From the IMG/VR virus record IMGVR_UViG_3300025016_000004: a stretch of 64,000 nucleotides of DNA; one strand, 5' to 3'. This stretch comes from a virus (lineage: Duplodnaviria > Caudoviricetes). How positions within the stretch are numbered: position 1 is the first letter of the stretch; each line of letters opens with the position of its first letter. Under the pieces are notes generated by a model. That model searched no databases, had not been told where the DNA came from, and saw only the letters and a list, made by a program, of their open reading frames with translations. The position numbers were made by a program, and so were the translations under genes. This document shows positions 5,850-56,369 of the stretch, in pieces.

Positions 5850-7619
5850 ATGGTAAAAGAATTTGTTGGCCCAGTTTATTTGGAGCCAATTGAACATGTT
5901 TATATTCATAGACAAACAGGTAAACGTTATGGTTCAGTAACCCAAATGTTAGGCTCAATTGAGCATGAATTTGAAACTGAATTGGTTGCAGAAAGAATAT
6001 CAATGCAGCGAGATGACGACCCTAAGAAGAATCCTGATTACCATGGTATGACCATGGAACAAATTTTAGATTATTGGCAATACTTGAATGATAGTGCCAA
6101 CGAATACGGAACATATGTTCATGAAACAGTTGAAACGTATCTTTTAAAACAAAAATGGTGGTATCCAACAGATGAGTTGCAGAAAGCTGTTATAAAGGCG
6201 TATAATGAATTAGAAGTTGATGAAGGTAAGTGTGTATACCCAGAGCGAATTATGTTTTCGGAAAAATATAGTCTAGCGGGGACTGCCGATTTAAAAATTG
6301 ATATTGATGATGAATGGTTTGATATTGGAGATTGGAAAGGGTTACCAATTGATACCCCAATATTCACTAATAATGGATGGAAAACTATGGGTAGTGTATC
6401 ATATGGTGATAAAGTTTATGACATGGATGGTAATCTATGTGATATATTACATTTTTCTGGGGTAAAAAATAAAGATTGTTTTGAAATTGAATTTGATAAT
6501 GGTGAAATAATTATCGCAGATTACGAACATAGATGGTTAATATCTTTTATGCGTGATGGTAATTTTACTGATAAAGTTATGACTACTGATGAACTATTCG
6601 ACTATACCACTGAATTAAATAAAAGTAATAAAAGATGGTCGCATAAAATACCTAAAATTAAGATAACCAAACCGTTAAATAATCCGAATATCACATTACC
6701 CTTAGACCCTTATTTGTTAGGTGTATGGTTAGGTGATGGGCATAAAACTGACACCAAGATAACTAATATGAATAAAAAAATGTGGTTAGAATTGGAAAGA
6801 CGTGGTTATGAATTAGGTGGTGATGTAAGCCAAGGTGGTTCTGGTAAAGCTCAAACTAGAACAGTTTTAAATGTGAGTAATATATTTAATGAATTAAATT
6901 TAATTCAAAATAAGCATATACCAGATATATTTTTAATGGCATCACATGAACAACGGCTTGATTTATTGCGTGGGTTTATGGATACCGATGGTCATTATAA
7001 TTCATCACGTAAAAGATTTGTTATGTCAACAACTAGAGAGTGGCAAGCAAATGAATTTAATAAATTAGTATCATCATTAGGTATTAAAACAACAGTAATT
7101 AGGTATAAGAAAAAAGCTATGGGTAAAATTATTAATGTAATTGATATTTGTTTTAGTACTAACAATTTAAACCCATTTTTAACTAGAGATGATTTAAAAA
7201 TTGAATATACTAAGATAAATAATAAAACGTTTAAAAATATTGTTTCAGTTAAAAAAGTGAAATCAGTACCAACTAGATGTATTGAAGTTGATAGCCCAAG
7301 TAGTACTTTTTTATATGGCTATAATTTTGGTGTAACACATAACACTAATAAAAGGTTTGAGTTTTATAGCCCATTTGGTCAAACACTTAAAAAACCTTTC
7401 AACCATTTACAACAATGTCATCATTCAACATATAGTTTACAGTTAAGTGTGTACGCTAAAATGTGTGAGGAAGAAACTGGAATGAAATGTAGACAAATAT
7501 GGATAGGATATTGGAGTAGGGAAACTGAAAAGTTTACTAGAATCCCAATTACATATCTTAAACACGAAGCAACACAACTATTGGAGCTTCACAAATATAA
7601 TAAAGAAATAGCTACTTAA
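5850..7619 (+). CDS. PD-(D/E)xK exonuclease containing an intein
   Basis: YGSVTQML, GTYVHE, AGTADL, DWK|TN, YSLQLSVYA; intein inserted between K and T. Confidence 0.85.
   Translation: MVKEFVGPVYLEPIEHVYIHRQTGKRYGSVTQMLGSIEHEFETELVAERISMQRDDDPKKNPDYHGMTMEQILDYWQYLNDSANEYGTYVHETVETYLLKQKWWYPTDELQKAVIKAYNELEVDEGKCVYPERIMFSEKYSLAGTADLKIDIDDEWFDIGDWKGLPIDTPIFTNNGWKTMGSVSYGDKVYDMDGNLCDILHFSGVKNKDCFEIEFDNGEIIIADYEHRWLISFMRDGNFTDKVMTTDELFDYTTELNKSNKRWSHKIPKIKITKPLNNPNITLPLDPYLLGVWLGDGHKTDTKITNMNKKMWLELERRGYELGGDVSQGGSGKAQTRTVLNVSNIFNELNLIQNKHIPDIFLMASHEQRLDLLRGFMDTDGHYNSSRKRFVMSTTREWQANEFNKLVSSLGIKTTVIRYKKKAMGKIINVIDICFSTNNLNPFLTRDDLKIEYTKINNKTFKNIVSVKKVKSVPTRCIEVDSPSSTFLYGYNFGVTHNTNKRFEFYSPFGQTLKKPFNHLQQCHHSTYSLQLSVYAKMCEEETGMKCRQIWIGYWSRETEKFTRIPITYLKHEATQLLELHKYNKEIAT
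6339..7343 (+). mobile_element. Contiguous 335-aa intein with LAGLIDADG endonuclease, class-3 signature
   Basis: Starts GLPIDTPI; block B EHRW, block F TRCIEVD, ends VTHN|T; motifs LGVWLGDG and RGFMDTDG. Confidence 0.9.
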
Positions 7620-11092: not shown

Positions 11093-12112
11093 ATGGGTAA
11101 AGTTTATAGATTTAATGAAAATGAAATAAAAGATATTATTAAAATGTATGTGGAAGATTTTGAATCAACAAATAATGTCGCTAAAAAATATAAAGTTGAT
11201 AGTAGTGTCATATCTAAAAGATTAATAGATAATAACATTATTTTAGCTAAAGGTTCTGCGTATTCTGAACAATATTGGTTAGATAGGGGTATGGATAAAA
11301 CTGATATTAAAAATCATATTAAAACATTAAGACCAGTAAATAAAGAATATTGGTTAAAGTTAGGTTATACCGAAGAAGAAAGTATATTACAAATAGAAGG
11401 TCAAAAATTGGTTTCAGAAAGAGGTTGTGTTGCTAGGTATGGCAAAATTGAGGGTAAACGTATTTGGAAAGAAAGGGAAGATAAAAGAAGTAAAAATGGT
11501 AAAAAAGGCTCTACAAGTTTAGAATATTGGATTAATAAAGGGTATTCAGAAAAAGAGGCTAAAATTAAGCGAAGTGAAAGGCAAAAAACGTTTTCAAAAA
11601 AAAAATGTATCGAAAAATATGGTAAAAAAGAAGGTTTAATTATTTTTACTGAAAGACAATGTAAATGGCAAAAAACGTTATATAAAAATGGGAAATTAAA
11701 ATCTGGGTATTCGGGTATTTCACAAGAATTATTTTTTGAAATAATTAAATATGTTGATGATACTAAATTATTAAATCAAATATTTTTTGCTGAAAAAGGT
11801 GGTGAGTATGTAATGGATAGTGAATATGGATTTTATAGGTTTGATTATGTAGACACCAAAAATAAAAAAATTGTTGAATATAATGGTGACCAATATCATG
11901 GGAACCCAAATAAATACATTGCTGAAGACACACCGCATCCATTTAGAAAAGATATAACAGCACAAGAAATGTGGGATAATGATAAACGAAAAATAGATTT
12001 GGCTAAAGAAAATGGGTTTGATGTATTAATAATTTGGGACTCGGAATATAGGTTAGGTAATAAACAAGATATAATAAATAAATGTATAAAATTTTTAAAT
12101 TACAATAAATGA
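11093..12112 (+). CDS. Vsr-like (PD-(D/E)xK) homing endonuclease between split-intein halves
   Basis: RFDYVD, VEYNGDQYHGNP, GFDVLIIWDSE; N-terminal HTH and KEYW repeats. Confidence 0.8.
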   Translation: MGKVYRFNENEIKDIIKMYVEDFESTNNVAKKYKVDSSVISKRLIDNNIILAKGSAYSEQYWLDRGMDKTDIKNHIKTLRPVNKEYWLKLGYTEEESILQIEGQKLVSERGCVARYGKIEGKRIWKEREDKRSKNGKKGSTSLEYWINKGYSEKEAKIKRSERQKTFSKKKCIEKYGKKEGLIIFTERQCKWQKTLYKNGKLKSGYSGISQELFFEIIKYVDDTKLLNQIFFAEKGGEYVMDSEYGFYRFDYVDTKNKKIVEYNGDQYHGNPNKYIAEDTPHPFRKDITAQEMWDNDKRKIDLAKENGFDVLIIWDSEYRLGNKQDIINKCIKFLNYNK

Positions 12113-14355
12113 TTAAAGAAATAGAGATAGGTAAATTAAACGATTTATTGAAAAAATACCCACAATTATTACCCAATGATTTCCAAGTTGATACACCATA
12201 TGGTTTTCATGATATTGAATGGTGTGGTATAACTGAGGAAAATGCTGAAGTTTATCGATGTGAATTAGAGGATGGTAAATATGTTGAAGGGGCTGATTAT
12301 CATAGATTAAAAAAAGAAGATGGTAAATTTACAACATTAAAGGGTATTGAAGTTGGAACTCCAATACAAATAATTGGGGGTAAAACATCTAATGTTAAAT
12401 CCATTGAATTATTAGAAAAACGTGATACCTTATATGATATTCAAGTAGCAAAAGTTCAACAATATTATTCAAATGATATGGTATCACATAACACAACTTT
12501 CAGTGTTGACGCCATTAAATTTTTATTATTTGGTAGAACTACAAAGACTGATAAAAATGAGCAAATATTTAACACTTACACTGATAAAAATACGTTGGTA
12601 GTAAGAGGTATGTTTGAAATTGAAGGTCAAGAAACTATTATTGAACGTAAATTAAGTCGTAGTGCTAAAAAATCTGGTGGTTGGACTGTAGTTAATAAAG
12701 TTAATTATTATAAACTACTCCCTGATGGTGAAGAGGTTTTATTAAATGATGAAGATTCCAAAAAAACAAGTGAAGTAATAAAAGATAATATTGGTGATGA
12801 AACTGATTTTGATATCACTATATTAGCTACCGCTAGAAACTTAGAAGATTTAGTTGATGCCAAACCAACTGAAAGTGGTAGGTTGTTAACTAAATTTATT
12901 GGGTTAGAAGTTATTGAAAATAAAGAAATCATTGCCAAACAAATGAATTCAGATTTTAATAAGACTAAAAAGGGTAATCACTATAACGTAGTTTCCCTAT
13001 TAACGGATAACACAACCAATGAAGAAAATATTAAATTATATTCTGACCATTTAAAAACCCATAAAGAAAATCTATCAGTTGTTGAAAGTACGATAGGTAA
13101 ATTAGATAATGAGAAAGACCGTTTATTAAATAGTAAATTAAAAGTTGATGTTGAAATTTCTCAGTTAAATCCAGAAACGATTCAAACAGAAATTGACCGT
13201 ATAACAGATAGGGGTTTAGAGTTTAAAGAAAGAATCAAAGAATATGAAGCTAAAATCAAAGAAATTGCAAATATTTCATATGATGAATATTTATACGATG
13301 AATTAGAGAAGAAAAGTAGAGATTTAACAATTAAGATTGGTGGGTTAGAAAATGATGTAGTACAATTTGGTAAGGTTATTGCTGATTTAGAGAATAGCGA
13401 AATTTGTCAAGCCTGTAAACGGCCATTAGATGATGTAGATAATTCACAATCAATAGCTGATTATAAAGCAAAGATTGGTAGTACTAGAGTCTCAATTGAA
13501 GCGTTAAAAATAGATTTGGCTGAAATCGATGGTTCTATATCTAAAATGAAGGAAAATAGAGAAATCGTAGATAGAAGAAATAGATTAGAACTGGAGAAAG
13601 ATAAGGCTGAAGTTGAGATTGGTTCTTTAAGAAATAAAATGATGGATAAGAAAGCCGATTTGAAAAAATACAAGGCTAATGAAGAAGCTATCAAAACCAA
13701 TATTAATATTGAGGCTGACATATCGGCAGTAAAAACCAACTTAATTGTTGAGAATAGACAAAAAGATGATGTAAATCAAAAAATTTATTCTACACAAACA
13801 GCAATTACAGCGGCTGAACAACAAATCATCATGAATGATAAGATGATTAAAACACTTAAGAAAGAAGAAGAAATTGAAAAGGTGTTTAAAGTTTATCTAG
13901 AGATGGTTGGTAAAAAAGGTATTAGTAAATTAGTCTTAAGGTCAGTTTTACCAATTATCAATTCGGAATTACATAGATTATTAGATGAAGTTTGTGATTT
14001 TGAAATTGAATTAGTTATAAATAGTAGAAATGAGGTTGAATATAATCTAATAAAAAGTGATGTGATTAAATCACTTAAATCTGGTAGTGGTTTAGAAAGA
14101 ACTATAGCTAGTTTAGCATTAAGATGTGTATTAGGTAAGATATCACATTTACCAACACCAAATTTTATTACGTTTGATGAAGTGTTGGGTAAAGTTGCCG
14201 CAGTTAATATAGAAGCGTTAAAACCTATGTTTGAGAAAATTACGGACATGTTTGATATAGTATTTTTCATATCACACAATGATTTAGTTAGAGATTGGGG
14301 TGATAATGTGATAACAATTAAGAAAGTTAACGACATTTCATCGATTAAAGTATAA
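12109..14355 (+). CDS. sbcC: 128-aa C-intein + SbcC/Rad50 C-terminal part
   Basis: LYDIQV...VSHN|TTFS at 12492/12493; coiled coil, CQAC hook, SGSGLE signature, ITFDEV Walker B, FFISH. Confidence 0.9.
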   Translation: MIKEIEIGKLNDLLKKYPQLLPNDFQVDTPYGFHDIEWCGITEENAEVYRCELEDGKYVEGADYHRLKKEDGKFTTLKGIEVGTPIQIIGGKTSNVKSIELLEKRDTLYDIQVAKVQQYYSNDMVSHNTTFSVDAIKFLLFGRTTKTDKNEQIFNTYTDKNTLVVRGMFEIEGQETIIERKLSRSAKKSGGWTVVNKVNYYKLLPDGEEVLLNDEDSKKTSEVIKDNIGDETDFDITILATARNLEDLVDAKPTESGRLLTKFIGLEVIENKEIIAKQMNSDFNKTKKGNHYNVVSLLTDNTTNEENIKLYSDHLKTHKENLSVVESTIGKLDNEKDRLLNSKLKVDVEISQLNPETIQTEIDRITDRGLEFKERIKEYEAKIKEIANISYDEYLYDELEKKSRDLTIKIGGLENDVVQFGKVIADLENSEICQACKRPLDDVDNSQSIADYKAKIGSTRVSIEALKIDLAEIDGSISKMKENREIVDRRNRLELEKDKAEVEIGSLRNKMMDKKADLKKYKANEEAIKTNINIEADISAVKTNLIVENRQKDDVNQKIYSTQTAITAAEQQIIMNDKMIKTLKKEEEIEKVFKVYLEMVGKKGISKLVLRSVLPIINSELHRLLDEVCDFEIELVINSRNEVEYNLIKSDVIKSLKSGSGLERTIASLALRCVLGKISHLPTPNFITFDEVLGKVAAVNIEALKPMFEKITDMFDIVFFISHNDLVRDWGDNVITIKKVNDISSIKV

Positions 14356-28752: not shown

Positions 28753-29793
28753 ATGAGTAAAGACTTATATAAAATTCTGGAAATTGATAAAAATGCCAGC
28801 GAAAGTGATATTAAAAAAGCTTATCGTACTATGGCAAAAAAATACCATCCAGATAAGAATCCAGATAATAAAGAAGCTGAGCAAAAATTCAAAGACGTTG
28901 CTGAAGCTTATGAAGTATTGAGTGACCCTAATAAAAAAGCTAGGTATGATTCGATGGGTTATGATGCGTATAATGGTGGCCCTACTCAAAACCATGCGAA
29001 TCCCCATGATATGTTTGCAAATTTCTTCAACTCTATGCGAGAGCAACAAGAAAATGAACAACTTAAAAGGCAACACACCATTATTCAAAAAATAGCTTTG
29101 ACTATGGAAGAAGTTTATCATGGTGTGACCAAGAAATTTAAATATAAAAGGTCAGTTAAATGCGGTACTTGTAATGGTAAAGGTGGTGAGAATATAGTTA
29201 GATGTGAAGCGTGTAACGGGCAAGGCGTTCAATATAGAATTATACAAACTCAACTTGGTAGAATGCAAGAAACCATTTCATGTAATTCATGTAGTGGTCG
29301 AGGGTTTAAAATTGGTAAGACATGTAATTCATGTAGTGGTCAGGGTCTCGTTAGAGTAGATGAAATTTTAGAAGTTAAAATACCTCATAGTGTAATGCCT
29401 AACCAACATATAGTATCCCGTAATAAAGGTCATTATTATGCCGATAGAAGTGGTGAACGTTATGGTGATATGGTAATGTTAGTTGAAATAAATCAAGATA
29501 AGTACACAATTATTGAAGATTATGGTTTGATGTCTAAAGTTGATATACCATATGAAGTAATGGTATTGGGCGGTGAATTTACCTTTGATTCGGTAGATGG
29601 TTCTAAGGTAAAGGTACCAGTTTCTAAATTAAGTGATATAGGTCATAAATTAAAATTAAAGGGTAAAGGATTGAAAAACCCTAATCAAAGTGTAAGAGGG
29701 GACCAATACATTATGCTTGATTTAAAATTCCCTACAGAAATTACAGAAGAAGAAGAAAAATTACTTAATGAATTAAAAAAATTAAAGGGATAG
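28753..29793 (+). CDS. dnaJ: DnaJ chaperone
   Basis: HPD J-domain, four CxxCxGxG repeats, C-terminal domain. Confidence 0.92.
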
Positions 29794-29851
29794 CTTGTTT
29801 ATTCCCTTTTTTTTTAGTTATATTGCATATAAATTAATAAAAATAGATATT

Positions 29852-30283
29852 ATGGCAAAATGGGGAGAACCTTCAGATGAAACTTTTAAAAAAGTCACAG
29901 ATGTGTTAATTAGTACTGGGTTAGAAAACTTAGTAGACACTAAAATAATTTTAAATGATGACCAAAAAAAGGTTATAGTGGTTCAAAAAGAATCGGCAGT
30001 TAATAAATTCGCTTATGGTTATGATTTAAAACTAACCATAAATGAAATAATTTTTGATGGATTAACAGATATTCAACAAGTACAAATTATTGAAGAAGCG
30101 TTGGCTGGTACTTGGTATGATTTCGATAACGATAAGTTAGTTGTTAATGCACCTGATAAAGTTTACAGGTCATTCATTGAAAAATATGGGTGGGATGAAA
30201 CTGAAAAATTACGTGAGTCAGTTAAATCTTTATATGATAAAGAAAAAAATAACGGTGAAGACCCTAACGTAGATACTGAGTAA
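29852..30283 (+). CDS. Hypothetical protein (phage metallopeptidase-like fold, uncertain)
   Basis: ORF between dnaJ and clpP. Confidence 0.4.
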   Translation: MAKWGEPSDETFKKVTDVLISTGLENLVDTKIILNDDQKKVIVVQKESAVNKFAYGYDLKLTINEIIFDGLTDIQQVQIIEEALAGTWYDFDNDKLVVNAPDKVYRSFIEKYGWDETEKLRESVKSLYDKEKNNGEDPNVDTE

Positions 30284-30286
30284 TAT

Positions 30287-30991
30287 ATGGGATTAGATTT
30301 TTATAGTGAATTTAAAGATTATGCTATAAAGCATATGGGGATAAGTAGTATGCAATTACATTATTGGGAAAAAACTCAGAATAATATTTATGGTAATTGT
30401 ATGGTCACGGGTAGTATGACACCTATGGTATTAGAGGAAAGACCAATTAGGGTAAGCCAAATGTCAGTATTTGACAGACTTATGATGGATAGAATACTTT
30501 GGTTAGCTGGACCTGTTAATGATTTAATGAGCACAACAGTTCAAGCTCAACTTCTATTTTTAGAAAGCGTTGATAAAAATAAAGATATTACGATTTATGT
30601 AGATTCACCAGGTGGAAGCGTTAAGTCAGGATTATCAATGATTGATAACATGATGTTATGTGAAGCTGATATTAGAACAGTAAATACTGGTATGGCCGCT
30701 TCAATGGGTTCATTGTTGTTAGGTGCTGGAACTAAAGGTAAACGTAGTACGTTAAGATTTAGTAGAGTGATGTTACATCAAGTATCATCAGGTTATGAAG
30801 GTAATATTCAAGACATAGAAATTTCATTTCAAGAATCAAAAAAATACAATAAAACATTATTTGATTTATTAGGTGGTTTTTGTGATAAAGACCCTAAAAA
30901 AGTCATGGAAGATGCTAGTCGAGATTTATGGATGAATGCTGAAGAAGCCTTAACTTATGGAATAGTAGATGAAATAATTACTAAGAAATAA
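30287..30991 (+). CDS. clpP: ClpP protease subunit
   Basis: DSPGGSV, AASMGS (Ser), MLHQ (His), RDLWM (Asp). Confidence 0.92.
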   Translation: MGLDFYSEFKDYAIKHMGISSMQLHYWEKTQNNIYGNCMVTGSMTPMVLEERPIRVSQMSVFDRLMMDRILWLAGPVNDLMSTTVQAQLLFLESVDKNKDITIYVDSPGGSVKSGLSMIDNMMLCEADIRTVNTGMAASMGSLLLGAGTKGKRSTLRFSRVMLHQVSSGYEGNIQDIEISFQESKKYNKTLFDLLGGFCDKDPKKVMEDASRDLWMNAEEALTYGIVDEIITKK

Positions 30992-31344
30992 TGAACAAGA
31001 TAAATATTGTAAATAAAAGTAACCACGCCCCAACCGATAGAGATTTCTATGTAGGTCGGGGTTCGGCTTTTGGCAACCCTTTTACCAGTCAAAAAATAGA
31101 AAGGACTAAAGCTGAATTTCAAGCAAGTAGTAGGGAAGAAGCTATTGAAAAATATGAGACTTACTTAGAAGTGCAATTAAGATTAAAACAAAGAAATGTC
31201 ATCAATGGGCTTGAGAAAATGGTGGAGATGTTGAAAGAAGGTGATATTAATTTAGTATGTTATTGTGCACCAAAGAGATGTCATGCTGAAGTTATAAAAA
31301 ATAAAGTGATGGGGATGTTACTTAAAAATTTAATGCCAGAATAA
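30991..31344 (+). CDS. DUF4326-like protein
   Basis: YVGRGSAFGNPF...LVCYCAPKRCHAEVI. Confidence 0.75.
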   Translation: MNKINIVNKSNHAPTDRDFYVGRGSAFGNPFTSQKIERTKAEFQASSREEAIEKYETYLEVQLRLKQRNVINGLEKMVEMLKEGDINLVCYCAPKRCHAEVIKNKVMGMLLKNLMPE

Positions 31345-31402
31345 TTTGGTGTTTTAAAAAAATCTGTATATTTAAATTATACAAACGTTCTTTAACATAA
31401 TG

Positions 31403-31774
31403 GGGGGTGACTGGATTTGACCAGATTTGACGGAAATTTACAGCATGTAGTGTTAGATTGGAAACACTTTAAATACACTATCAAATTTTTTAAACGGCAA
31501 TATTTTAAATATTGAAGAAAATATCTTTGCTAACGCTACTTGTGGTGTTGCTGGGGAGGTTGTTTTAGCCTAAATTAAAACAATGGTGGTAATCCACTAA
31601 AAACTCGACTCTGATGTGTTACGAGTGAACCGAAAAACACATTAATCCTCTCTTTATCGGATTTAAATTGGTATTGACATATTTTTTGTTATTTTTTTTA
31701 GTAAAAATTTAACTAAACATGTAGACGTACTTTAATGTACTTTTGGGACTGGGTTTCGAATACCCACACCTCCA
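31403..31774 (+). ncRNA. ssrA: tmRNA
   Basis: GGGGGTG/CACCTCC acceptor stem with G3.U70, GGATTTGAC 5' motif, T-arm GGGTTTCGAATACCC, tag frame 31496-31573; CCA not encoded. Confidence 0.9.
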
Positions 31775-31844
31775 GGCTATCGAATTAACTCACTTGCACG
31801 TAGTGATAGCCGCACATTTCAATTGGAATGACTAAGAAGTTAAT
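31775..31844 (+). ncRNA. HDV-like (theta-type) self-cleaving ribozyme
   Basis: P1 GGCTATC/GATAGCC, P2 ATTAACT/AGTTAAT, P3 ACT/AGT, L3 TGCACGT, P1.1 GC/GC, P4 CATTTC/GGAATG, J4/2 ACTAA (C31832). Confidence 0.8.
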
Positions 31845-31893
31845 AAATTGTGGAGATTTACTGTTTTACGTGGAGATAAATATATTTATAAGT

Positions 31894-32076
31894 ATGGAAA
31901 TAAAAAATAATTATCAAAGACCACAATTAAATGTAATTTGTTCCACTTGCGGAATATCTTTTAAAAAAGATGGTTCTGAAGTTAGACGTAATGATAAAAT
32001 AGGTAGAAATAACTATTGTTCATTAAAGTGTTCGGGTAAAAATAATAATAAACATCTTACAAGTAGTGTTACCTAA
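31894..32076 (+). pseudogene. Zn-ribbon N-terminus of a truncated homing endonuclease
   Basis: CSTCG...YCSLKC then stop; ATATTTATA motif upstream. Confidence 0.5.
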
Positions 32077-32105
32077 CTAATGAGTATAACTTATAGATTT
32101 TATTA

Positions 32106-32134
32106 AAAAAGCCACAAGATATTGTGGCTTTTTT
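32106..32134 (+). terminator. Intrinsic terminator
   Basis: aaaaagccacaa-gata-ttgtggctttttt. Confidence 0.8.
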
Positions 32135-32168
32135 GCGTTATAATAATATTTATTATAAAAACATTATT

Positions 32169-32414
32169 ATGAGAATATTTAAAGATTTTAAGGACATGCT
32201 TAGCTCTGATGATAGTAGCAAAATGTCAAGTAAGAGAGTAATAACATTTATGGCATTTTTATGCGTAACTGCTGCGTTTATCAGTAATTTATATTTTGAT
32301 TTGACAGTAGATGATAACATGTATAACGGTATGATTCAAATCGTTTGGGCTGGATTAGGAGTAGTGGTAGGTGAGCATTTATTAAAGAAAAAAAATGCTG
32401 ACCCTAATTCATAA
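32169..32414 (+). CDS. Holin-like 2-TM protein
   Basis: SSKRVITFMAFL and a second TM segment. Confidence 0.45.
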   Translation: MRIFKDFKDMLSSDDSSKMSSKRVITFMAFLCVTAAFISNLYFDLTVDDNMYNGMIQIVWAGLGVVVGEHLLKKKNADPNS

Positions 32415-32624
32415 ATAGTTAGACAATTAACTTCTCTTAATAGTCACACTAGGTTTTATAGTAGTGTTAGGTGTTGTCACCACTCTAGGAGTTGGTGGCA
32501 TTACTGTTGTTGTTGTTTTTTTACATCCGCACATAATATATTGGTTTTATTAATAAATATACGAATAAAACTAAAATGTTAAAGAGTTTTATTTACTTTT
32601 TTAAAAAAAAACATAATTTAAATT

Positions 32625-32828
32625 ATGTTTAGAACTAATTTTTTAATAGTAGATGAAGAGTGGAATTTAATTACCGAATATAAAAGTAGGGTTAAACCAG
32701 ATGTTGGTGAATTTATATTCTTACAACCTAAATATTATAAGGTATTAAATGTTGTCCACACTTTTAAAGTATTACCAATCACTAGAAATATAACAGTAGT
32801 TGTGAAGGAATGGAAAAATTTTAAATAA
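32625..32828 (+). CDS. Hypothetical protein
   Basis: 67-aa ORF. Confidence 0.45.
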   Translation: MFRTNFLIVDEEWNLITEYKSRVKPDVGEFIFLQPKYYKVLNVVHTFKVLPITRNITVVVKEWKNFK

Positions 32829-32919
32829 AATTTTGAAAAAAACCTTTATTTTTCTAAAAAAAGTTATATATTTGCAGTGTAGGATGTTGAATTCGATTAA
32901 ATTCAATGATGTTTTTTTT

Positions 32920-35245: not shown

Positions 35246-35638
35246 ATGGAAAATAAATTAAAACTTTCCGAAATATTTCAGGAAGAACCTATAGTTGTTT
35301 ATCATGGTACATTAACCAAATTTGTTGATTCAATTAAAAAAAATGGATTAACTCATAAAAATTATTATGAACCAAAATGGTTTATGGTTTCTACTGATAT
35401 TGAAAGTGCTTTATATCATGCAACACCAGATGAGGGTGAAACTGCCTCAGTTATTGAGTTTAAAGTTCCTCTAACTAATGATAAATGGTATGGTTATCCT
35501 TATTTTTGGCCACCCTATAAAAGAGATGGTAATTCTATGTGGTTTGCATTAAAACAACCATTAGATGGTAATCTAATCAATAAAGTACACAACGTACCTT
35601 ATGCAACCTTTATTAAACAAAAATATAAGGGATATTAA
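35246..35638 (+). CDS. ADP-ribosyltransferase-fold protein
   Basis: VYHGT...IKKNGL...FMVSTDIESALYHA. Confidence 0.55.
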   Translation: MENKLKLSEIFQEEPIVVYHGTLTKFVDSIKKNGLTHKNYYEPKWFMVSTDIESALYHATPDEGETASVIEFKVPLTNDKWYGYPYFWPPYKRDGNSMWFALKQPLDGNLINKVHNVPYATFIKQKYKGY

Positions 35639-35640
35639 AT

Positions 35641-35901
35641 ATGGAAAATAGAAAAATATTTGTTTGCAGTTGTCATTCACTAGAACACCAATTTGCGTTT
35701 TGGTATGACGAAGAATATAATGAGCTTTATTTTGAACCACACTTACATGATAATTCTTGGCCTTGGTATAAAATATTTTGGCAAAGGTTAAGATATGTAT
35801 TTGGAAACAAATCAAGATTTGGTGCTTGGGATGAAGTAATAATCAAACCAGAAGATGCTAAACAAATAATTGAATACTTAAATAAAATAAGTGAGAATTA
35901 A
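35641..35901 (+). CDS. Hypothetical protein
   Basis: 86-aa ORF, CSCHS motif. Confidence 0.5.
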   Translation: MENRKIFVCSCHSLEHQFAFWYDEEYNELYFEPHLHDNSWPWYKIFWQRLRYVFGNKSRFGAWDEVIIKPEDAKQIIEYLNKISEN

Positions 35902-36310
35902 AAAGAAGAACATATTATTTGAAGAAAGGGTTAAATCTAACATGGCCGTACCCAATGAGGTTAAGCAACTTCATTCTTTATTTGTAAAGAATGGGTTTCA
36001 ACTTTATATCGTTGGTGGTGCTGTGCGTGATACCCTTATGGGTAAACCAATCAAAGATTATGACTTAGCAACTGATGCTCCACCAGAAACGGTTGAGAAG
36101 ATGTTGAAAAGTGCTGAAATTAGAACTATTGGAACTGGCGCAGCATTCGGGGTTATTAACGCATATGTAAATGATGAAGAATACGAGATTGCCACATTTA
36201 GGTCTGACGGATTTGATAGTGATGAAGATGAATTAAAAAAATTTAAGGATTATTTGAAATCCTTAAATAATGGTTCTTTTGAAAAGTTTGAAAATAATTT
36301 AATGAAATAG
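35891..36310 (+). CDS. cca: CCA-adding enzyme / tRNA nucleotidyltransferase, N-terminal part
   Basis: YIVGGAVRD, DYDLAT, EIATFRSD, then a 33-aa tail and stop. Confidence 0.85.
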   Translation: MRIKKKNILFEERVKSNMAVPNEVKQLHSLFVKNGFQLYIVGGAVRDTLMGKPIKDYDLATDAPPETVEKMLKSAEIRTIGTGAAFGVINAYVNDEEYEIATFRSDGFDSDEDELKKFKDYLKSLNNGSFEKFENNLMK

Positions 36311-36343
36311 CGACTTTTAGACTTATTTCTCATATTTATTAAT

Positions 36344-37018
36344 ATGAGAAAAGGTTATATATATGAATTAGTTTGTCCTATTACGAATGAATGTAGGTAT
36401 ATAGGGCAAACAATACAAGAATTAAATAAAAGGTTATATAAGCATAAATATTGTATGCGAAATAACCCTAGTCATAAAAATAGTTGGTTAATCAAATTAT
36501 CTAATGAATCTTCATTAGATAATTTGATTATAAAATTAATTGAAGAATGTGATAGTGATATTTTAAATGAACGTGAAATTTATTGGATTGAAAAATATCA
36601 AAATGAAGGTTATCAGCTAACTAATATGACTGAAGGTGGTAATTGTGGTTCTAGAGGTTATAAACATACTAAAGAAGCCATTAAGAAGATTGCCGAAGCT
36701 GGGAAAAGAGTTGGTTATAAACATACTAAAGAAGCGAAAAAAAAGATATCAAATTCATTACTAGGTAAGAGAGGTAGGAATACTGGAAACAAACATTCAA
36801 TAGAAACCAAAAAAAAGATATCTGAAAGTAAGAAGGGAATTGTGAGTTGGAATGCACAACCAGTTTTACAATTAGATAAAGAAGATAAAATAATAAACGA
36901 GTGGAGAAGTGCTAAATATGCCGCTGAACAACTTAGTTTGAGTCAAGGTAATATTTGGGCGGTTACTAATGGTGATAGAAAAAGTTGTGGTGGATATAAA
37001 TGGATTTTAAAAAAATGA
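36344..37018 (+). CDS. GIY-YIG homing endonuclease with NUMOD3/NUMOD1 repeats
   Basis: GYIYELV...RYIGQT, NMTEGG, KHTKEAK, KSCGGYKW. Confidence 0.85.
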   Translation: MRKGYIYELVCPITNECRYIGQTIQELNKRLYKHKYCMRNNPSHKNSWLIKLSNESSLDNLIIKLIEECDSDILNEREIYWIEKYQNEGYQLTNMTEGGNCGSRGYKHTKEAIKKIAEAGKRVGYKHTKEAKKKISNSLLGKRGRNTGNKHSIETKKKISESKKGIVSWNAQPVLQLDKEDKIINEWRSAKYAAEQLSLSQGNIWAVTNGDRKSCGGYKWILKK

Positions 37019-37200
37019 ATAAATTGAAAAGAAAAGTTGGAGATAAAGTTACTTTGAATGATAAATTTGGTAATGATGAAGGAAAAGAAGCAATAATTAA
37101 CTCAATAGAAACTTCTAAAAATGGTAGAGAGTGGTATCGACTAACTTATAAAGGTAAATTAGACCCATGGAATTGGTGTGATTCAGATTTTAAAAATTAA
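37015..37200 (+). CDS. Small SH3/KOW-like hypothetical protein
   Basis: KVGDKVTL...WYRLTY. Confidence 0.4.
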   Translation: MNKLKRKVGDKVTLNDKFGNDEGKEAIINSIETSKNGREWYRLTYKGKLDPWNWCDSDFKN

Positions 37201-37201
37201 T

Positions 37202-38086
37202 ATGAAAACTTGGAAAGATATAGCTAAAAAAACAGTACCTAATGAATTTAATACATTCATGAAGGGTAAAGGCAGAAGACCTGATTCTGTAATATTTTCT
37301 GATATTGAAACTGATGTTAAAAGACGTGATTTAACAATCAATGCATTATTCTACGATATTTCAACAAAAGAGATAGTAGATTTAGTTGGTGGCATAAAAG
37401 ACATTAATAATGGTGTTGTAAGGACCGTAGGAGACGCTGGAGAGCGTTTTGGGGAAGATAGACTAAGAATCCTTAGAGCAATTAGATTTGCGGGTAGAAC
37501 GGGTTCTAAATTAGACCCAGCAATTGATAAGTCATTAAGACAAGATAATTCATTAGAAGGTATTTCTGGTGAACGTATTATGGATGAGTTTGTTAAAGGT
37601 ATCAAATCAGCGAAATCAACTAAATATTTTTTATCATTAATTGATAAATATAATTTATTTGATTGGATTTTTAAAGGTATTTCACCAATTAACAAACAAT
37701 TCATTGAGTCTAATGACCCAATATTAGTTATAGCGGTATTACTAAAGGATGTATCATATGATACTATCAGTAAACAATTGAATGCGCTTAAGTATTCATC
37801 CAATCAAATAAAACCAATAGTATTTATGGTAGCTTATTACCAATATTTCTCTAAAGATACTTTTTATACGTTGAAAAAAATGTATAATACTTTTGAGGCA
37901 AATGGTAATACGTTTTTATCATTCATAGAGCTTATGGGTGGTAACACTGAAATTGCACGTAAGTTTATCAATTATCAGCTATCAATTACTGGTGATATGG
38001 TAAAACAAAAATACGGAATGAAAGATGGTCCTGAATTAGGGGCTAAGATAAAAGAGTTAGAAACTCAACAGTTTTTTAAAATATAA
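37202..38086 (+). CDS. cca: CCA-adding enzyme, C-terminal part
   Basis: GRRPDSV...RRDLTINA, EDRLRILRAIRF, SGERI. Confidence 0.85.
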   Translation: MKTWKDIAKKTVPNEFNTFMKGKGRRPDSVIFSDIETDVKRRDLTINALFYDISTKEIVDLVGGIKDINNGVVRTVGDAGERFGEDRLRILRAIRFAGRTGSKLDPAIDKSLRQDNSLEGISGERIMDEFVKGIKSAKSTKYFLSLIDKYNLFDWIFKGISPINKQFIESNDPILVIAVLLKDVSYDTISKQLNALKYSSNQIKPIVFMVAYYQYFSKDTFYTLKKMYNTFEANGNTFLSFIELMGGNTEIARKFINYQLSITGDMVKQKYGMKDGPELGAKIKELETQQFFKI

Positions 38087-38200
38087 TTTTCTATGTTCAT
38101 TGGTAATAAATGGTATGTGTATTTATTGCACATACCCTTTTTTTGTTAAAAACTTGTTTATATCATTTATCTTGTGTTATATTGTGCAAAATATAAAATC

Positions 38201-38824
38201 ATGAAAAAAGAATTTTATGAAAACATCCCAATAGTTGATATTACAACGGTATCTAAAGATGAAATGAAAATGGAACCATATATTGAAACGTACACTGGAT
38301 TAAGAGTATATTTTAATGACATACATAAAGATATAATATCGATACACGACATAGCACATTCATTATCTCAAATATGTAGATTTACTGGACATACAAAAGA
38401 ATTTTATAGCGTAGCACAACATTCAGTATTGGTTGCGGATGCACAAACTACGTTACCAGAAAAAAGAGCTGGGTTATTACATGATGCTACTGAAACTTAT
38501 GTGAATGACTTACCAAGCCCATTAAAAGCTTGCACAGATTTGGGTGATTATAAAAATTTAGAAAATAGATTTCACCATGTCATCAATCAAAAATATAAAG
38601 TTAATGATGGAATGACACCTAACATAAAGAAAGCTGATTTAGCAGCTTTATTCACTGAAAAGAGGGATGTTCTAAACAAACCTAGTGATTGGGGTTGGGG
38701 TTATGATATCATACCATTTGACGATATAATAATACCTTTAGGTCCTAAAGAAGCAAAAGCTTTATTCATTAAACGTTTTATAGAATTATTTCCAACTGAA
38801 GCAAAAAAAGAAGGTTTAATATAA
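38201..38824 (+). CDS. HD-domain phosphohydrolase (YfbR-like)
   Basis: YSVAQHSV, LLHDATETY, KADL. Confidence 0.8.
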   Translation: MKKEFYENIPIVDITTVSKDEMKMEPYIETYTGLRVYFNDIHKDIISIHDIAHSLSQICRFTGHTKEFYSVAQHSVLVADAQTTLPEKRAGLLHDATETYVNDLPSPLKACTDLGDYKNLENRFHHVINQKYKVNDGMTPNIKKADLAALFTEKRDVLNKPSDWGWGYDIIPFDDIIIPLGPKEAKALFIKRFIELFPTEAKKEGLI

Positions 38825-43979: not shown

Positions 43980-44199
43980 CAAATCTTAATAATTATGGAA
44001 AAATGTAGTTAAAGAATTGGTTCAAAATTTAAGAGCCAGTGGGATTAACGTCACATATTATGATAATCCAAGTAAAGAAAAGATTGAACGTATTAATAAA
44101 CGTTTGGTAGAATTAAGAAAAAGAAATTCCTTTTAGTCCCTGAAGAAATTCAAACTTTAAGGTGCAATCTTCAATAGCTCAGTTGGTTAGAGCTAAAAT

Positions 44200-44271
44200 T
44201 CTTCTCTCGTATAAAGGTTATTACGGGTGACTGTTAATCACTTTATCTAGGTTCGAGTCCTAGGGGAAGAG
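44200..44271 (+). tRNA. tRNA-Asn(GTT)
   Basis: GGTGA-CTGTTAA-TCACT, G73. Confidence 0.85.
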
Positions 44272-44344
44272 AGTTGTCGATATTAATCCACTTCCACGTA
44301 GTGACAACTGGTAATAGATGAATTCATCTAGCTAGGAGGTTAAT
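44272..44344 (+). ncRNA. HDV-like (theta-type) ribozyme
   Basis: P1 AGTTGTC/GACAACT, P2 ATTAATC/GGTTAAT, P3 ACT/AGT, L3 TCCACGT, P1.1 CC/GG, P4 TAGATG/CATCTA, J4/2 GCTAG (C44332). Confidence 0.8.
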
Positions 44345-44588
44345 AAACGTTCATTAAGTATCTTGGTGATTATATCAAGATACTTTTGGGATGTCTTAGG
44401 TTTAACATAAGTTTGGCTACTTGTATCGATAATACATAAATCAATCTTTAAATCATGACAGGCTTTTGATTTAGATATATCATTCTCTTGAATCTTTTGT
44501 AATTTATTGTTACCATATATAGGTTCATAATGAAAGATACCATTGTTTTAGAGTTGTTAAATTCTTCTTGGGTATATAATGGTTTCAT
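44333..44588 (-). pseudogene. Internally deleted Vsr-like homing endonuclease
   Basis: MKPLYTQEEF start joined out of frame to NGIFHYEPIYG...IQEND...IDLCIIDTS...YLDII C-terminus. Confidence 0.6.
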
Positions 44589-44658
44589 AAAGTTATTTAT
44601 TTATAAATATGTTAACATTTATAAAAGACGTTTTCGAGTCCTAGGGGAAGAGCAAAAT

Positions 44659-52491: not shown

Positions 52492-53060
52492 ATGAAACTT
52501 TTAGAAAGTCTAAAAGGGTATAATTGTTTAGGTGTAAAAATTTCTCGCCCCTCTCAGGTATTGATTATCATGAGAGGGGTACCGTGACAGGTTCTGGTAA
52601 ATCAACGAAAGCAAAAACATTGGTTGGTGAAGGTGTTGTTCATTCAACAGATGATTTAATTGACGCAACTGGTGACTATAATGGTTACTTTAAAAAAATG
52701 GTAGATTCAGGTGATTGGTCTGAACATGGTAGGATGCATAATAAGAATTTCTTAAATGCTAAAAAATCTATGGAATCTGGTATTACACCAGTTATCGACA
52801 ACACTAATCTAAGATTAAGGGAAGTTGAAAATTATATTATTGAAGCTCTTGAATTAGGTTTTGATGAAAACAATATTAAAATTGTAGATGTAGGTTTGGG
52901 TGGCCAAACTGCCGAAGTATTGGCAGAACGTAATTCACATAACGTACCGTTAAAAACAATTCAAAAAATGATACAAACTTATAATTCAGTAGGTGAGATA
53001 ACTGTATCTAGGGTTGTTGAAAACTATTTAAATAAACAAAAGAAAAGGGCTAATAATTAG
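52492..53060 (+). pseudogene. Polynucleotide-kinase-like (AAA_33/N4BP2-type) gene with a 5-bp insertion in Walker A
   Basis: MKLLES...LIIMRGVP[gtgac]GSGKST...HSTDD...VIDNTN...RNSHNVP. Confidence 0.7.
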
Positions 53061-53751
53061 CCCTTTTTTCGTTTCTATTAACATAACTACACAATGGTTG
53101 AAAATTTGTATAATGATTTAATTTAATTATATCTTCTTTACATGTTGCTGAGGCAAGTGGTATGATATGGTCTAAATCCCAACCAAAATTATATTGATAA
53201 TTATATAAACCATGATTATCCCAATTCATCCACGGTTCCCATTGAGATTCGATATGTTTTTTAAATTCTTTATAAGTACACCCCAATATTTCATGACTCC
53301 TAGATTTTTTATCATAACCACCCCTTTTAATCGATTGTCTAATTATACCACCTACAGTGTGTTTTAATTTATAAATGATGTCAGTCTTTCTCTTATATTT
53401 AATTTGTTCATAAATAGTATCTTTATTTTTATAATAATACTTTTTACGCATCTTTTTATACTTTTCACGATTATCTTTATAAAACTTCTTGGAATATTTT
53501 AAACGTTCTTCTTTATTATCTTCATAATAATTAGAAATATAAGTGGTGCGCTTTTCCTTATTTTCTTTAACCCAATTCTGAACCCTAATTTTATTAACTT
53601 TTTTAACTTCAGGATTAGCCCTATATTTTTTACCAGCAATAGATATACACCCCTTACATTGTGATTTTAAACCACTTTTAATTCTAGAACATTTACTAAA
53701 TTCTTTTACAGGTTTATAGACACCACATTTACTACAAATCTTAGTTTCCAT
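53050..53751 (-). CDS. HNH-like endonuclease with Zn ribbon
   Basis: CSKCG...CKGC, WDLDHIIP, NHYTNFQPLC. Confidence 0.75.
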   Translation of the reverse strand: METKICSKCGVYKPVKEFSKCSRIKSGLKSQCKGCISIAGKKYRANPEVKKVNKIRVQNWVKENKEKRTTYISNYYEDNKEERLKYSKKFYKDNREKYKKMRKKYYYKNKDTIYEQIKYKRKTDIIYKLKHTVGGIIRQSIKRGGYDKKSRSHEILGCTYKEFKKHIESQWEPWMNWDNHGLYNYQYNFGWDLDHIIPLASATCKEDIIKLNHYTNFQPLCSYVNRNEKRANY

Positions 53752-53902
53752 GATTAATGGTATTAAAATGTTGGTCTAATAACCAATTGATTAATTTAGA
53801 CTTATTGATTCCGTCATCAACTAATTGTTGGTAGTTGTCTGATGATATGGTAATGGATAACTTACCTTTCTTGTTTTCTTCTTTATATGCTTTTCTTCCC
53901 AT
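53741..53902 (-). CDS. Ribbon-helix-helix-like small protein (53 aa)
   Basis: KLSITIS...INKSKLINWLL. Confidence 0.55.
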   Translation of the reverse strand: MGRKAYKEENKKGKLSITISSDNYQQLVDDGINKSKLINWLLDQHFNTINHGN

Positions 53903-53966
53903 AATACTTATTTGTTTATATTAATAAATATCTAGAAATAAAGTAAAAGTCGCCTAAATACGAATT

Positions 53967-54101
53967 TTATTTAGATTTATTTTTGAAGTGTTCGGTAAGT
54001 AGTGAATCAATTAATTTAGATTTATTGTAATTACCTTCATCTAATTTATTAAGAAGGTTTTTATCTAAAGCTACCGATATTTTAGTTTTCTCATGTTTCA
54101 T
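53967..54101 (-). CDS. Ribbon-helix-helix-like small protein (44 aa)
   Basis: KISVALD...YNKSKLIDSLL. Confidence 0.55.
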   Translation of the reverse strand: MKHEKTKISVALDKNLLNKLDEGNYNKSKLIDSLLTEHFKNKSK

Positions 54102-54223
54102 ATTGGTAAATATAAGTAAAATGGTTAATAAAGTCAATAATTAATTTGTTTATTAGGTATAAATTCAGTATTTTTGTATTAAATTAATAAAAATAAAGGA
54201 TAATATAAATATATTTATATTTT

Positions 54224-54886
54224 ATGAAACTGAGAAAAATATACGATGATATGATTAATGAAGATAATACAAATATCAAAGCTTCTGAGCCTAAAAAATA
54301 CGTAGAAGCTGCATTAAAATTAGGTTTTGATGAGAATAATATAAAAATTATTGATGTTGGTGATGGTGGAGTTTCTGCTGAAGATTTGGCTAAAAGAAAT
54401 ACACATAACGTACCATTGAAAACAATTCAAAGAATGATGGCATCACATAAAGGTGTTGGCCTATTAACTGTAGATAAGATATTACAATCAGAAGGCGGTT
54501 TAAAAAACAATAAACCTGAAAAGATTTTATATGCGGCAGTAGTTTTAGATAATGAATCTAAAAATAAATTATTAAATTCTTTAGAAATCCCAGAAGGGTG
54601 GAAAGCTTTTGCGCATCATATGACAATAGTTTTTGGTAAAGGATTGGATGATAAAAATGAAGTTGGTAGAACGGTTTATTTAAAAGCAACTGAAGTTGGT
54701 TATAGTAATTTAGCTATGGCTGTTAAGGTTATTGGCTATCCATCAACCAATGACATACCACACATAACAGTAGCGGTAAATGTTGCGGAAGGTGGTAAAC
54801 CGTTTCTTTCAAATAAGATAACTGATTGGAAAACTCTTGATAGTCCAATTCATTTAAGTGGGGTAGTTGAAGAATTAAAGTCATAA
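54224..54886 (+). CDS. 2H phosphoesterase preceded by a kinase C-terminal remnant
   Basis: AHHMTI and PHITV motifs; LGFDENNIK...RNTHNVPLKTI duplicates the 52492 gene. Confidence 0.8.
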   Translation: MKLRKIYDDMINEDNTNIKASEPKKYVEAALKLGFDENNIKIIDVGDGGVSAEDLAKRNTHNVPLKTIQRMMASHKGVGLLTVDKILQSEGGLKNNKPEKILYAAVVLDNESKNKLLNSLEIPEGWKAFAHHMTIVFGKGLDDKNEVGRTVYLKATEVGYSNLAMAVKVIGYPSTNDIPHITVAVNVAEGGKPFLSNKITDWKTLDSPIHLSGVVEELKS

Positions 54887-54931
54887 CTTGTTTATTTGTA
54901 ATTTATTTAGTATATTTGTAACTAACATTTA

Positions 54932-56291
54932 GTGAACTACCCACCCACGCCAGAGGCGATGGGTTGGGCTTCTGATTTCACAGACTTGTGCTTCTTTATA
55001 GAAGTCTTATTTGAGTCTCCATCAGTGTTATCGAGCATCCCACCCGATATTATTTTTAAACCTTCTTTGAGAATATTTCTACTTGCATTTACATCTCTGT
55101 CGTGTATTACACCGCACGAGTTACAAGTCCATTCTCTATCAGAAAGTTTTAAATTTTGATTTATCCAACCACAGTCTCCACAAGTCTTCGAGCTAGGATA
55201 GAAACGATTAACTTTTACAAGTTCTTTTCCATACCAATCACACTTATATTGAAGTAATGTAACAAAATTACCCCAACTTGCATCGGCAATATGTTTTGAT
55301 AATTTGTGGTTTTTAATCATACCTTTTACATTTAAGTCCTCAACTGATATTAAATCATATTGATTAACCAGTTTATGTGAAACCTTATGTAAAGTGTCTA
55401 ATCTACAACTTGCAATTTTCTCGTGAATTTTAGCAACTTTGAGTTTTTGTTTTTCAAACCCATTACTACCTTTTTGTTTACGAGAAAGATGTTGTTGTGC
55501 TTTTTTTAATTGTTTTGCATATTTTTTTGTATATCTATTATTTTTGAATTTAGCATTATCAGAAGTAATTACAAAATCCTTTAAACCTAAATCTATTCCA
55601 ACTTGTTTATTTGTTTTAGGTAATTCTTTATTCTGTTGTTCTGTAAATATTGAAACATAATATTTACCTGTTGGTGTTTTGGTAATTATCATTTTACCAA
55701 TCTTACCTTTGACTTCTCTGTGAAGTTTAACTTTAATACCTTCTTTAAATTTTGGTATATTAATTTTATCTCCTTCTATACTACCAAATTGAGGTATGGT
55801 AAAAGTATTTTTATGTTTACGAGATTTAAACTTTGGGAATTGTGCATTACCTCTAAAAAAGTTTAAAAAAGCTGTATCTAAAGAGCGTAGAGCGAATTGT
55901 AAAGTTTGACTATTAACTTCTTTCAACCACATAGTCTTTTCTTCTTTTTTAAGTTTTGTCAAAGTGGCAGCTTGTTTGTAATAATTGTCAGACTTTTTAT
56001 CCGCTTGGTATTGTTCTTTGCGTTCATTTAGAAAATGGTTATACACCCAACGAGAGTGACCAAAGTGTTGATTTAATAGCACTTCTTGCTCATTTGTTGG
56101 AAAAAGACGAAACTTATATGTCTTATTAATCATTTTCATACCTATTATACATCAAAATTTATGCCAAAATATAGTTTTATGTAAATTTGTCATACTTAGC
56201 CGTTCAATATATTTTAAGCCAAGGTTAATCATACCTTTGTCGCTTACATCCCATCCACGCTTTGCGATGAATGGGTTTTACGCTCCTTTTT
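54932..56291 (-). mobile_element. Non-autonomous IS200/IS605 (IS1341-like) element
   Basis: Subterminal hairpins, right end ...GGGTAGTTCAC, TTTAT immediately 5' of the left end, no tnpA. Confidence 0.85.
54937..56139 (-). CDS. tnpB: TnpB RNA-guided nuclease
   Basis: YKFRLFP, GIDLG, VEDLNV, CGDCG/CNSCG, DRDVNA. Confidence 0.93.
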   Translation of the reverse strand: MKMINKTYKFRLFPTNEQEVLLNQHFGHSRWVYNHFLNERKEQYQADKKSDNYYKQAATLTKLKKEEKTMWLKEVNSQTLQFALRSLDTAFLNFFRGNAQFPKFKSRKHKNTFTIPQFGSIEGDKINIPKFKEGIKVKLHREVKGKIGKMIITKTPTGKYYVSIFTEQQNKELPKTNKQVGIDLGLKDFVITSDNAKFKNNRYTKKYAKQLKKAQQHLSRKQKGSNGFEKQKLKVAKIHEKIASCRLDTLHKVSHKLVNQYDLISVEDLNVKGMIKNHKLSKHIADASWGNFVTLLQYKCDWYGKELVKVNRFYPSSKTCGDCGWINQNLKLSDREWTCNSCGVIHDRDVNASRNILKEGLKIISGGMLDNTDGDSNKTSIKKHKSVKSEAQPIASGVGG

Positions 56292-56369
56292 ATAAAGTTA
56301 TTTGAAAAAAAATAAAGTAATTGGATTTATTCAAGAAATTCAAAATATTTATAAATAAATTATAAAAAT

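Follow-up and report, generated by a model that had tools for sequence, protein, structure and literature searches.

Self-cleaving ribozymes at the ends of tRNA-like RNAs

Theta ribozymes have been described as minimal self-cleaving ribozymes of the hepatitis delta virus (HDV)-like type, situated at the 3′ ends of phage tRNAs (Kienbeck et al. 2024, PMC10879173). Four of the tRNA-linked representatives self-cleave in vitro and are killed by a C-to-U substitution, and the phages that carry theta ribozymes are strongly enriched in genes for CCA-adding enzymes and RNA ligases (PMC10879173). The tRNAs of that study were called by tRNAscan-SE only, its Supplementary Data 2 holds the "isolated, non-tRNA-associated" ribozymes, and the paper makes no mention of transfer-messenger RNA (tmRNA), homing endonucleases or a cyclic phosphate (PMC10879173). 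Here, we analysed a stretch of 64,000 nucleotides (hereafter, the window) of a virus of the class Caudoviricetes (IMG/VR record IMGVR_UViG_3300025016_000004), in which a predicted HDV-like ribozyme (positions 31775–31844, plus strand) begins at the base that follows the 3′ end of a phage tmRNA (31403–31774, plus strand). A preliminary description of this DNA had stated that no such ribozyme was known to mature a tmRNA. Within the reach of our checks this holds, the word tmRNA being absent from the theta-ribozyme paper and our full-text literature searches having returned no study that links tmRNA to ribozymes of the HDV-like or any other self-cleaving type.

Protein-based 3′ maturation of tmRNA and tRNA proceeds through the endonucleases RNase E and RNase Z and trimming by RNase T and RNase PH, followed by the CCA-adding enzyme. 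The outcome at the present locus would be the same, a tmRNA ending at its discriminator base and ready for CCA addition and alanylation; here, however, the cut would be made by a cis-acting RNA. HDV-type cleavage leaves a 2′,3′-cyclic phosphate rather than a 3′-OH, and an extra healing step would therefore be needed. In laboratory practice, the HDV ribozyme is fused to the 3′ end of in-vitro transcripts for exact ends, and since HDV-type ribozymes need no sequence 5′ of the cut, the approach is applicable to any RNA; the arrangement described here differs in being natural, genomic and conserved. The best-scoring Rfam family is that of the Faecalibacterium ribozyme drz-Fpra-1 (RF02682), with the same P1, P3, L3, P4 and CUAAGA junction as the window copy. 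That ribozyme sits in a bacterial mRNA leader and not after a tRNA-like RNA, and the present sequences score below the family cut-off of 44 bits (33 bits for the window copy, 33–41 bits for its relatives).

The closest likeness is to theta ribozymes. The window copy has their layout (P1, J, P2, P3, U, NN, NCGY, P3′, P1′, NN, ..., CNAA, P2′) and belongs to the same ribozyme class, its conserved letters (U, NN, ACGU, CUAA) fitting by eye. In both cases position +1 stands right after a tRNA-like acceptor end, mostly without an encoded CCA, and the phage carries genes for a CCA-adding enzyme and an RNA ligase; the window also has a second ribozyme copy, which follows a tRNA. The theta definition places the cut within a few nucleotides of a tRNA 3′ end, as is found for this second copy (at 44272), whereas the copy at 31775 directly adjoins a tmRNA at its tRNA-like end, a case for which the definition makes no provision. 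A tmRNA as substrate has no counterpart in the theta paper. The window copy is 70 nt long with a covarying P4 hairpin of 4–6 bp (18 nt), in place of which theta ribozymes have a linker of 5–8 nt in nearly all rows examined and of 13–17 nt in a few, with a total length of approx. 52–56 nt (PMC10879173). It thus departs from the minimal theta form and, because of the covarying 18-nt P4 hairpin, we regard it as a sister form and not as the core theta motif. Further differences are P3 (ACU/AGU) and a probable bulged A in P2, a form that a few published entries approach, the origin from an aquifer rather than the gut, and the link of this subfamily to homing-endonuclease genes.

Fold, scores and covariation of the ribozyme

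The preliminary description placed G+1 of a nested double pseudoknot at the base after A31774 of the tmRNA and proposed a search with HDV models. Such a search gave a full-length match: RF02682 (HDV-F-prausnitzii) aligned end to end, model positions 1–74, with exactly 31775–31844 (33 bits, E = 9e-5 in a 221-nt search), so that the first base of the alignment is the base predicted as G+1. A second HDV family, RF01787, reached 15.6 bits against a cut-off of 37. The exact end-to-end alignment and the E-value still indicate homology to HDV-like ribozymes, despite the sub-threshold score. A permissive Rfam scan of the whole window returned no HDV match; the match appears only with short input, which we put down to the speed filters of the search being stricter on long input.

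All the elements that had been named were found in the window copy: P1 (31775–81/31805–11), P2 (31784–90/31838–44), P3 (31792–94/31802–04), the loop L3 (UGCACGU, including U31795 and G31800), P1.1 (G31796-C31813 and C31797-G31812), P4 (31815–20/31825–30) and J4/2 (CUAA), at the head of which stands the putative catalytic C31832. P2 is probably extended by C31791-G31836, with A31837 bulged. The predicted cut falls between A31774 and G31775. The conserved nucleotides and all 23 pairs are intact, and the nested part of the fold (P1, P4) is also the minimum-energy fold.

Relatives were gathered by pattern scans of IMG/VR and JGI metagenomes; a blastn search of GenBank phages with a 600-nt region returned no match, and the exact 23-mer spanning the tmRNA/ribozyme junction is absent from IMG/VR. 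Among 13 distinct relatives (an earlier run had used nine sequences), 97% of the pair cells hold standard pairs, against 23–56% when the partners are slid. Double-sided changes occur in 14 of the 23 pairs, none of 500 shuffles reaches the observed covariation value, and P1, P2, P3, P1.1 and P4 each have at least one covarying pair, both pseudoknots included. The compensatory change pointed out earlier, P1.1 being GC/GC in the copy at 31775 and CC/GG in that at 44272, is present as described, and covariation extends to all five helices. The catalytic C31832 (alignment column 61) is invariant, and L3 reads U-NN-A-C-G-U in 13/13 sequences.

We built a covariance model (R1) from the ribozyme family and scored every position of the 64 kb with it. 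Two sites alone stood out, at 31775 (88.6 bits, among the best scores in the family) and at 44272 (67.9 bits), the next match having 14.5 bits. The two share a 16-nt core, for which 0.01 occurrences would be expected in the window against the two observed.

The tmRNA upstream of the junction

The tmRNA was matched by Rfam RF00023 at 31403–31775 with 65.5 bits (cut-off 47, E = 2.7e-23). Its sequence provides a tRNA-like domain with an acceptor stem (GGGGGUG/CACCUCC) that includes a G3.U70 pair, and a tag frame at 31496–31573 of 25 codons (GNILNIEENIFANATCGVAGEVVLA), with C-terminal VLA followed by a stop. The bases 3′ of the discriminator A31774 are GGC and not CCA, so that the CCA is unencoded. 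ARAGORN did not call this tmRNA and likewise missed those of several relatives. Tags homologous to that of the window were found in L006, L020, L024, L045 and L063 (loci of relatives are designated by L and a number). At 25 amino acids the tag is unusually long, and the homologous tags of relatives are long as well.

Two promoter-like blocks (TATATTTA ... GTTCTTTAA; 31367–31395, plus strand) lie 8–11 nt 5′ of G1 of the tmRNA. Both precede 7/7 phage tmRNAs compared, as well as that of L063, and the pair reads ATATTTA, then GTTCTTwAA, 8–11 nt before G1, in the window, L006, L012, L017, L020, L024, L028 and L063. Judging from sequence and position, it may be a phage promoter from which transcription starts at or just before the mature 5′ end of the tmRNA. 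Directly 5′ of the tmRNA, the window (28753–31344) encodes DnaJ, a putative metallopeptidase, ClpP and a DUF4326 protein; the order ClpP, DUF4326, tmRNA is common to the window and L063.

Recurrence of the junction in diverse phages

Nine distinct phage tmRNAs are followed by an intact ribozyme whose position +1 is the base after the discriminator A: those of the window (with which L023 is counted), L063, L028/L030/L031, L035/L037, L020, L024, L034, L045 and L047. L023 is identical to the window over 30991–32841 and has the same tmRNA (65.5 bits) and ribozyme. The locus L063 was located through tmRNA-internal motifs and not through its ribozyme, which scores 76.1 bits with R1. ARAGORN called the tmRNA of L028 and L030 at 249–620, with the ribozyme starting at 621; L031 has the same tmRNA motifs and junction, its ribozyme starting at 2933, and in all three P3 is ACC/GGU. 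P4-bearing ribozymes also follow the tmRNAs of L035 and L037 (64.7 and 65.6 bits) and of L020 (RF00023, 51.9 bits). In L024, the tmRNA has a partial Rfam match, a degenerate T-loop and a homologous tag, and the ribozyme reaches 41.2 bits with RF02682.

The ribozymes of the three remaining junctions are of the minimal theta type. They follow tmRNAs of 64.3 bits (L034) and 46.9 bits (L047) and, in L045, a tmRNA recognised by a tag and 3′ end homologous to those of L024 and L020. L047 is a 90-kb phage record with terminal repeats and a CheckV completeness of 100%. Its ribozyme is exactly ribo_nr 2160 of the published theta set, and that of L045 differs by one change from ribo_nr 3051; both entries are filed there as 'isolated' (PMC10879173). 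A tenth case (L073:5464–5526, minus strand) is degenerate, with 38 bits and mismatches in P1 and P3; the tmRNA there encodes its CCA, and +1 of the ribozyme would be the base after it. The tmRNAs with a ribozyme are not each other's closest relatives, that of L028 being 74% identical to the ribozyme-less one of L012, which points to repeated gain or loss.

Conservation of the locus and RNA data

L063 is syntenic with the window (ClpP, DUF4326, tmRNA, ribozyme, terminator and membrane protein), with its terminator approx. 5 nt past the ribozyme and the endonuclease gene absent. Identity between the two amounts to 93% for the ribozyme, against 72% for the tmRNA, 76% for ClpP, 56% for DUF4326 and 52% for the membrane protein. 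Two of the changes in the ribozyme fall at paired positions and keep the pairs (G-C to G.U in P1, U.G to U-A in P4). The comparison with L023 (window 29269–32841) is uninformative on selection on the ribozyme, as the sequences are identical over 30991–32841; divergence is confined to the clpP and metallopeptidase genes (13–18%), a pattern that in these sequences indicates recombination mosaicism between strains. L023 also lacks approx. 610 bp after 32841.

DNA of the window is present in many aquifer metagenomes, and contigs of the tmRNA were found in four aquifer metatranscriptome assemblies, covering 31411 to 31673, 31725, 31748 and 31774, respectively. The longest of them (X23) stops precisely at 31774, without a loose end, which, coming from a single run, is a weak hint of cleavage only. 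Contigs of lower depth start at 31789 and 31803. No RNA contig was found over 31775–31788, across the cut site or over the flanking protein genes, but these are assembled contigs only and we do not use this gap as evidence. All four tmRNA contigs begin at 31411, 8 nt into the tmRNA as predicted, and this position is directly flanked by Illumina adapter sequence in two of the runs; an artefact of the library, a stop of reverse transcription or a 5′ end other than the predicted one could account for it.

Association with homing-endonuclease genes

The ribozyme of the window is followed by a truncated homing-endonuclease remnant of the EndoVII/HNH type (60 amino acids; 31894–32076, plus strand), which corresponds to the N-terminus of a 178-residue protein of L028 (57% identity over 46 residues). 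The L028 protein matches the endonuclease family phrog_3322 (1.4e-24), and the open reading frame (ORF) of the window itself matches HNH PHROGs. An intrinsic terminator (32104–32135, plus strand), formed by a 14-bp hairpin stem (−17.4 kcal/mol, z −5.6) and a U-tract, closes the unit of tmRNA, ribozyme and remnant; the terminator scanner did not flag it, despite the strong hairpin and the U-tract obtained on folding. Had a cassette replaced the original tmRNA 3′ end, a duplicate of that end should lie past the remnant, and a search there found none.

The ORF closest to the ribozyme, whichever its strand, encodes a homing endonuclease at most loci of the P4-bearing subfamily. The phrog_3322 EndoVII/HNH family lies 3′ of the tmRNA ribozymes in the window (as the remnant), L028 and L035/L037, and antisense in L024; other P4-bearing copies adjoin HNH_3 (L010, L017), GIY-YIG (L005) or antisense phrog_559 HNH genes (L006, L013 and window 44332–44547). 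No recognisable endonuclease gene adjoins the minimal theta-type ribozymes of L034, L045 and L047. In L010, L011 and L017, an A-rich leader and an ATG without a Shine-Dalgarno sequence lie 8–12 nt past the ribozyme, an arrangement in which the cleaved 5′-OH RNA would start with a folded ribozyme directly before the start codon. The window as a whole is unusually rich in selfish elements, with intein/LAGLIDADG signatures at 5850–7619, 12109–14355, 57467–59414 and 62726–63190 and many HNH, GIY-YIG and NUMOD3 endonuclease genes that stand free among its tRNA genes.

The second ribozyme copy (44272–44344, plus strand) lies directly 3′ of a tRNA-Asn (44200–44271, the Rfam match ending at 44271). 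An antisense homing-endonuclease remnant (44332–44547), which matches phrog_559/9084, overlaps the 3′ end of this ribozyme, and past both a 3′ piece of the tRNA-Asn (T-arm and acceptor) is repeated at approx. 44628–44652. Just 5′ of the tRNA-Asn stands a tRNA-like 5′ half with acceptor and D-arm. These tRNA fragments (44150–44652) look like the scar of a cassette insertion. An older split tRNA around the cassette was considered and rejected; with the flanks joined over many offsets ARAGORN called none, and only the repeat of the 3′ end was seen.

Proposed maturation pathway and end healing

We consider it likely that 31775–31844 is part of the transcript of the phage tmRNA, as its 3′ trailer, and is active as a self-cleaving ribozyme of the HDV-like type. 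The RNA would fold into the nested double pseudoknot, and C31832 with a bound Mg2+ would catalyse the attack of the 2′-OH of A31774 on the A31774-G31775 phosphate. This would release the tmRNA, ending at its discriminator with a 2′,3′-cyclic phosphate, without host 3′-processing nucleases, and the other product would be a 5′-OH RNA with the ribozyme and the endonuclease remnant, up to the terminator at 32104–32135. Removal of the cyclic phosphate and addition of CCA would be needed before charging with alanine. The tmRNA, the covarying fold, the exact junction and its recurrence and conservation are observed; we infer cleavage in vivo, a healing step and the addition of CCA by phage enzymes.

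Genes that might serve such healing are encoded in the window. The gene for a CCA-adding enzyme (35891–38086, plus strand) consists of two ORFs (35891–36310 and 37178–38086), the first with residues 1–80 of the PolyA_pol head and the second with residues 73–126 and the tRNA nucleotidyltransferase domains. The Pfam head domain is thus split at approx. residue 75, with a GIY-YIG/NUMOD3 homing-endonuclease gene (36344–37018) between the halves. The gene may carry an intron or be a split gene; no group I intron reached the Rfam gathering threshold. A gene for a HAD phosphatase (38174–38824) adjoins that of the CCA-adding enzyme. A candidate 2H phosphoesterase (54224–54886, plus strand) has two HxT motifs (HMT and HIT) in its translation and matches tRNA_lig_CPD of Pfam weakly, at an E-value (0.0012) that misses the cut-off; we suggest, from these motifs, that it could open the 2′,3′-cyclic phosphate left by the ribozyme. 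It stands in a cluster of RNA-repair type (52524–61029), along with a PNK-like kinase (52524–53060), an intein-interrupted Rnl1-like RNA ligase (57467–58057 and 58452–59414) and an RlaP-like nucleotidyltransferase (60415–61029). A weak Tpt1-like ORF was seen at 35246–35638, and an IS605 OrfB/TnpB gene lies antisense at 54937–56139.

Alternative explanations

Several points weigh against self-cleavage by the window ribozyme as the route of tmRNA maturation. The RF02682 score of 33 bits is under the gathering score of 44. P1 opens with G1-C, against a G.U wobble in 9 of the 13 relatives, although a G1-C opening occurs among published theta ribozymes (PMC10879173). The end of contig X23 at 31774 could be an assembly break, and the cyclic phosphate blocks CCA addition, while the enzymes that might remove it are candidates. 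The frequency of the arrangement was estimated from 36 tmRNA loci of the clade, collected through tmRNA-internal motifs and hence blind to what follows the tmRNA; an intact ribozyme is present in four of them (two distinct sequences), a degenerate one in L073 and none in the rest, several of which, among the 3′ tails examined, show a hairpin and then a T-run. The ribozyme would therefore be dispensable for phage tmRNAs in general, and a minority solution. Some of these points also favour an inactive relic of a decayed endonuclease insertion, the tmRNA being matured by host nucleases: the adjacent endonuclease gene is truncated, P1 lacks the G.U opening, and a degenerate copy does exist after the encoded CCA in L073. 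In the window copy, however, the conserved nucleotides and the 23 pairs are intact, the 88.6 bits with R1 are among the best of the family, and from the window to L063 the ribozyme has changed far less than its neighbours; we thus regard a relic as very improbable. A chance resemblance in AT-rich intergenic DNA, to which the sub-threshold Rfam score and the empty scan of the whole window might point, was rejected as next to impossible in view of the core count, the R1 scan of the 64 kb and the covariation that no shuffle equalled, the same position moreover being occupied in at least nine independent junctions.

Another possibility is that the ribozyme is one component of a mobile module built around a homing endonuclease and mainly serves the gene of that enzyme, freeing the endonuclease mRNA from the abundant structured tmRNA or tRNA and keeping the insertion harmless, as introns and inteins do, with the trimming of the tmRNA as a by-product. 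Such a role would agree with the homing-endonuclease ORFs that adjoin most of the P4-bearing subfamily, with the repeated gain or loss that fits ribozyme-bearing tmRNAs not being closest relatives, and with the repeated tRNA-Asn 3′ piece past the second copy and its endonuclease remnant. Against it, L063 has no endonuclease gene and yet a highly conserved ribozyme, the gene of the window has decayed to 60 codons beside an intact ribozyme, and the minimal ribozymes of L034, L045 and L047 follow tmRNAs with no recognisable endonuclease gene; these cases speak for the end of the tmRNA, and not the endonuclease, as the reason why the ribozyme is retained. Some adjacency is also expected by chance, as homing-endonuclease genes are scattered over the window. 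We consider the endonuclease as the main beneficiary unlikely, and note that this explanation is compatible with tmRNA maturation and concerns origin more than mechanism.

The repeated gain or loss of tmRNA ribozymes may possibly have involved a ribozyme-plus-endonuclease module. Going further, and only tentatively, since we hold the following to be rather doubtful as a whole, the ribozyme and the homing-endonuclease gene might together be a mobile module that insulates itself and inserts into the 3′ flanks of tRNA and tmRNA genes. By restoring the exact 3′ end of the invaded gene, the ribozyme would make the insertion costless. After fixation of the module, activation of the phage tmRNA would depend, through its cyclic-phosphate end, on the healing and CCA-adding enzymes of the phage, which would provide a timing switch for trans-translation. 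If true, homing endonucleases would have a third means of being harmless, in addition to introns and inteins, and the link to homing endonucleases, if it holds, would be a new strategy for mobile genes.

Implications for phage trans-translation

The ribozyme class and the trimming of tRNA-like 3′ ends were already known, two tmRNA-linked ribozymes being present in the published set as 'isolated', and the trimming of a tmRNA is a natural extension of tRNA 3′-end trimming by theta ribozymes. New are the tmRNA as putative substrate and its recurrence in a range of diverse phages, the form with a P4 helix, the habitat outside the gut and the link to endonucleases. The finding would place tmRNA among the RNAs that owe their ends to small self-cleaving ribozymes, gives a likely job to some of the published "isolated" theta ribozymes, and extends the family beyond gut phages to jumbo-phage-like genomes of an aquifer. 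The cyclic-phosphate end raises a testable question, namely which enzyme heals the tmRNA. These phages encode their own tmRNA, ClpP, DnaJ, CCA-adding enzyme and RNA-repair genes, and a 3′ end made by a ribozyme would permit phage trans-translation without host RNA-processing nucleases.
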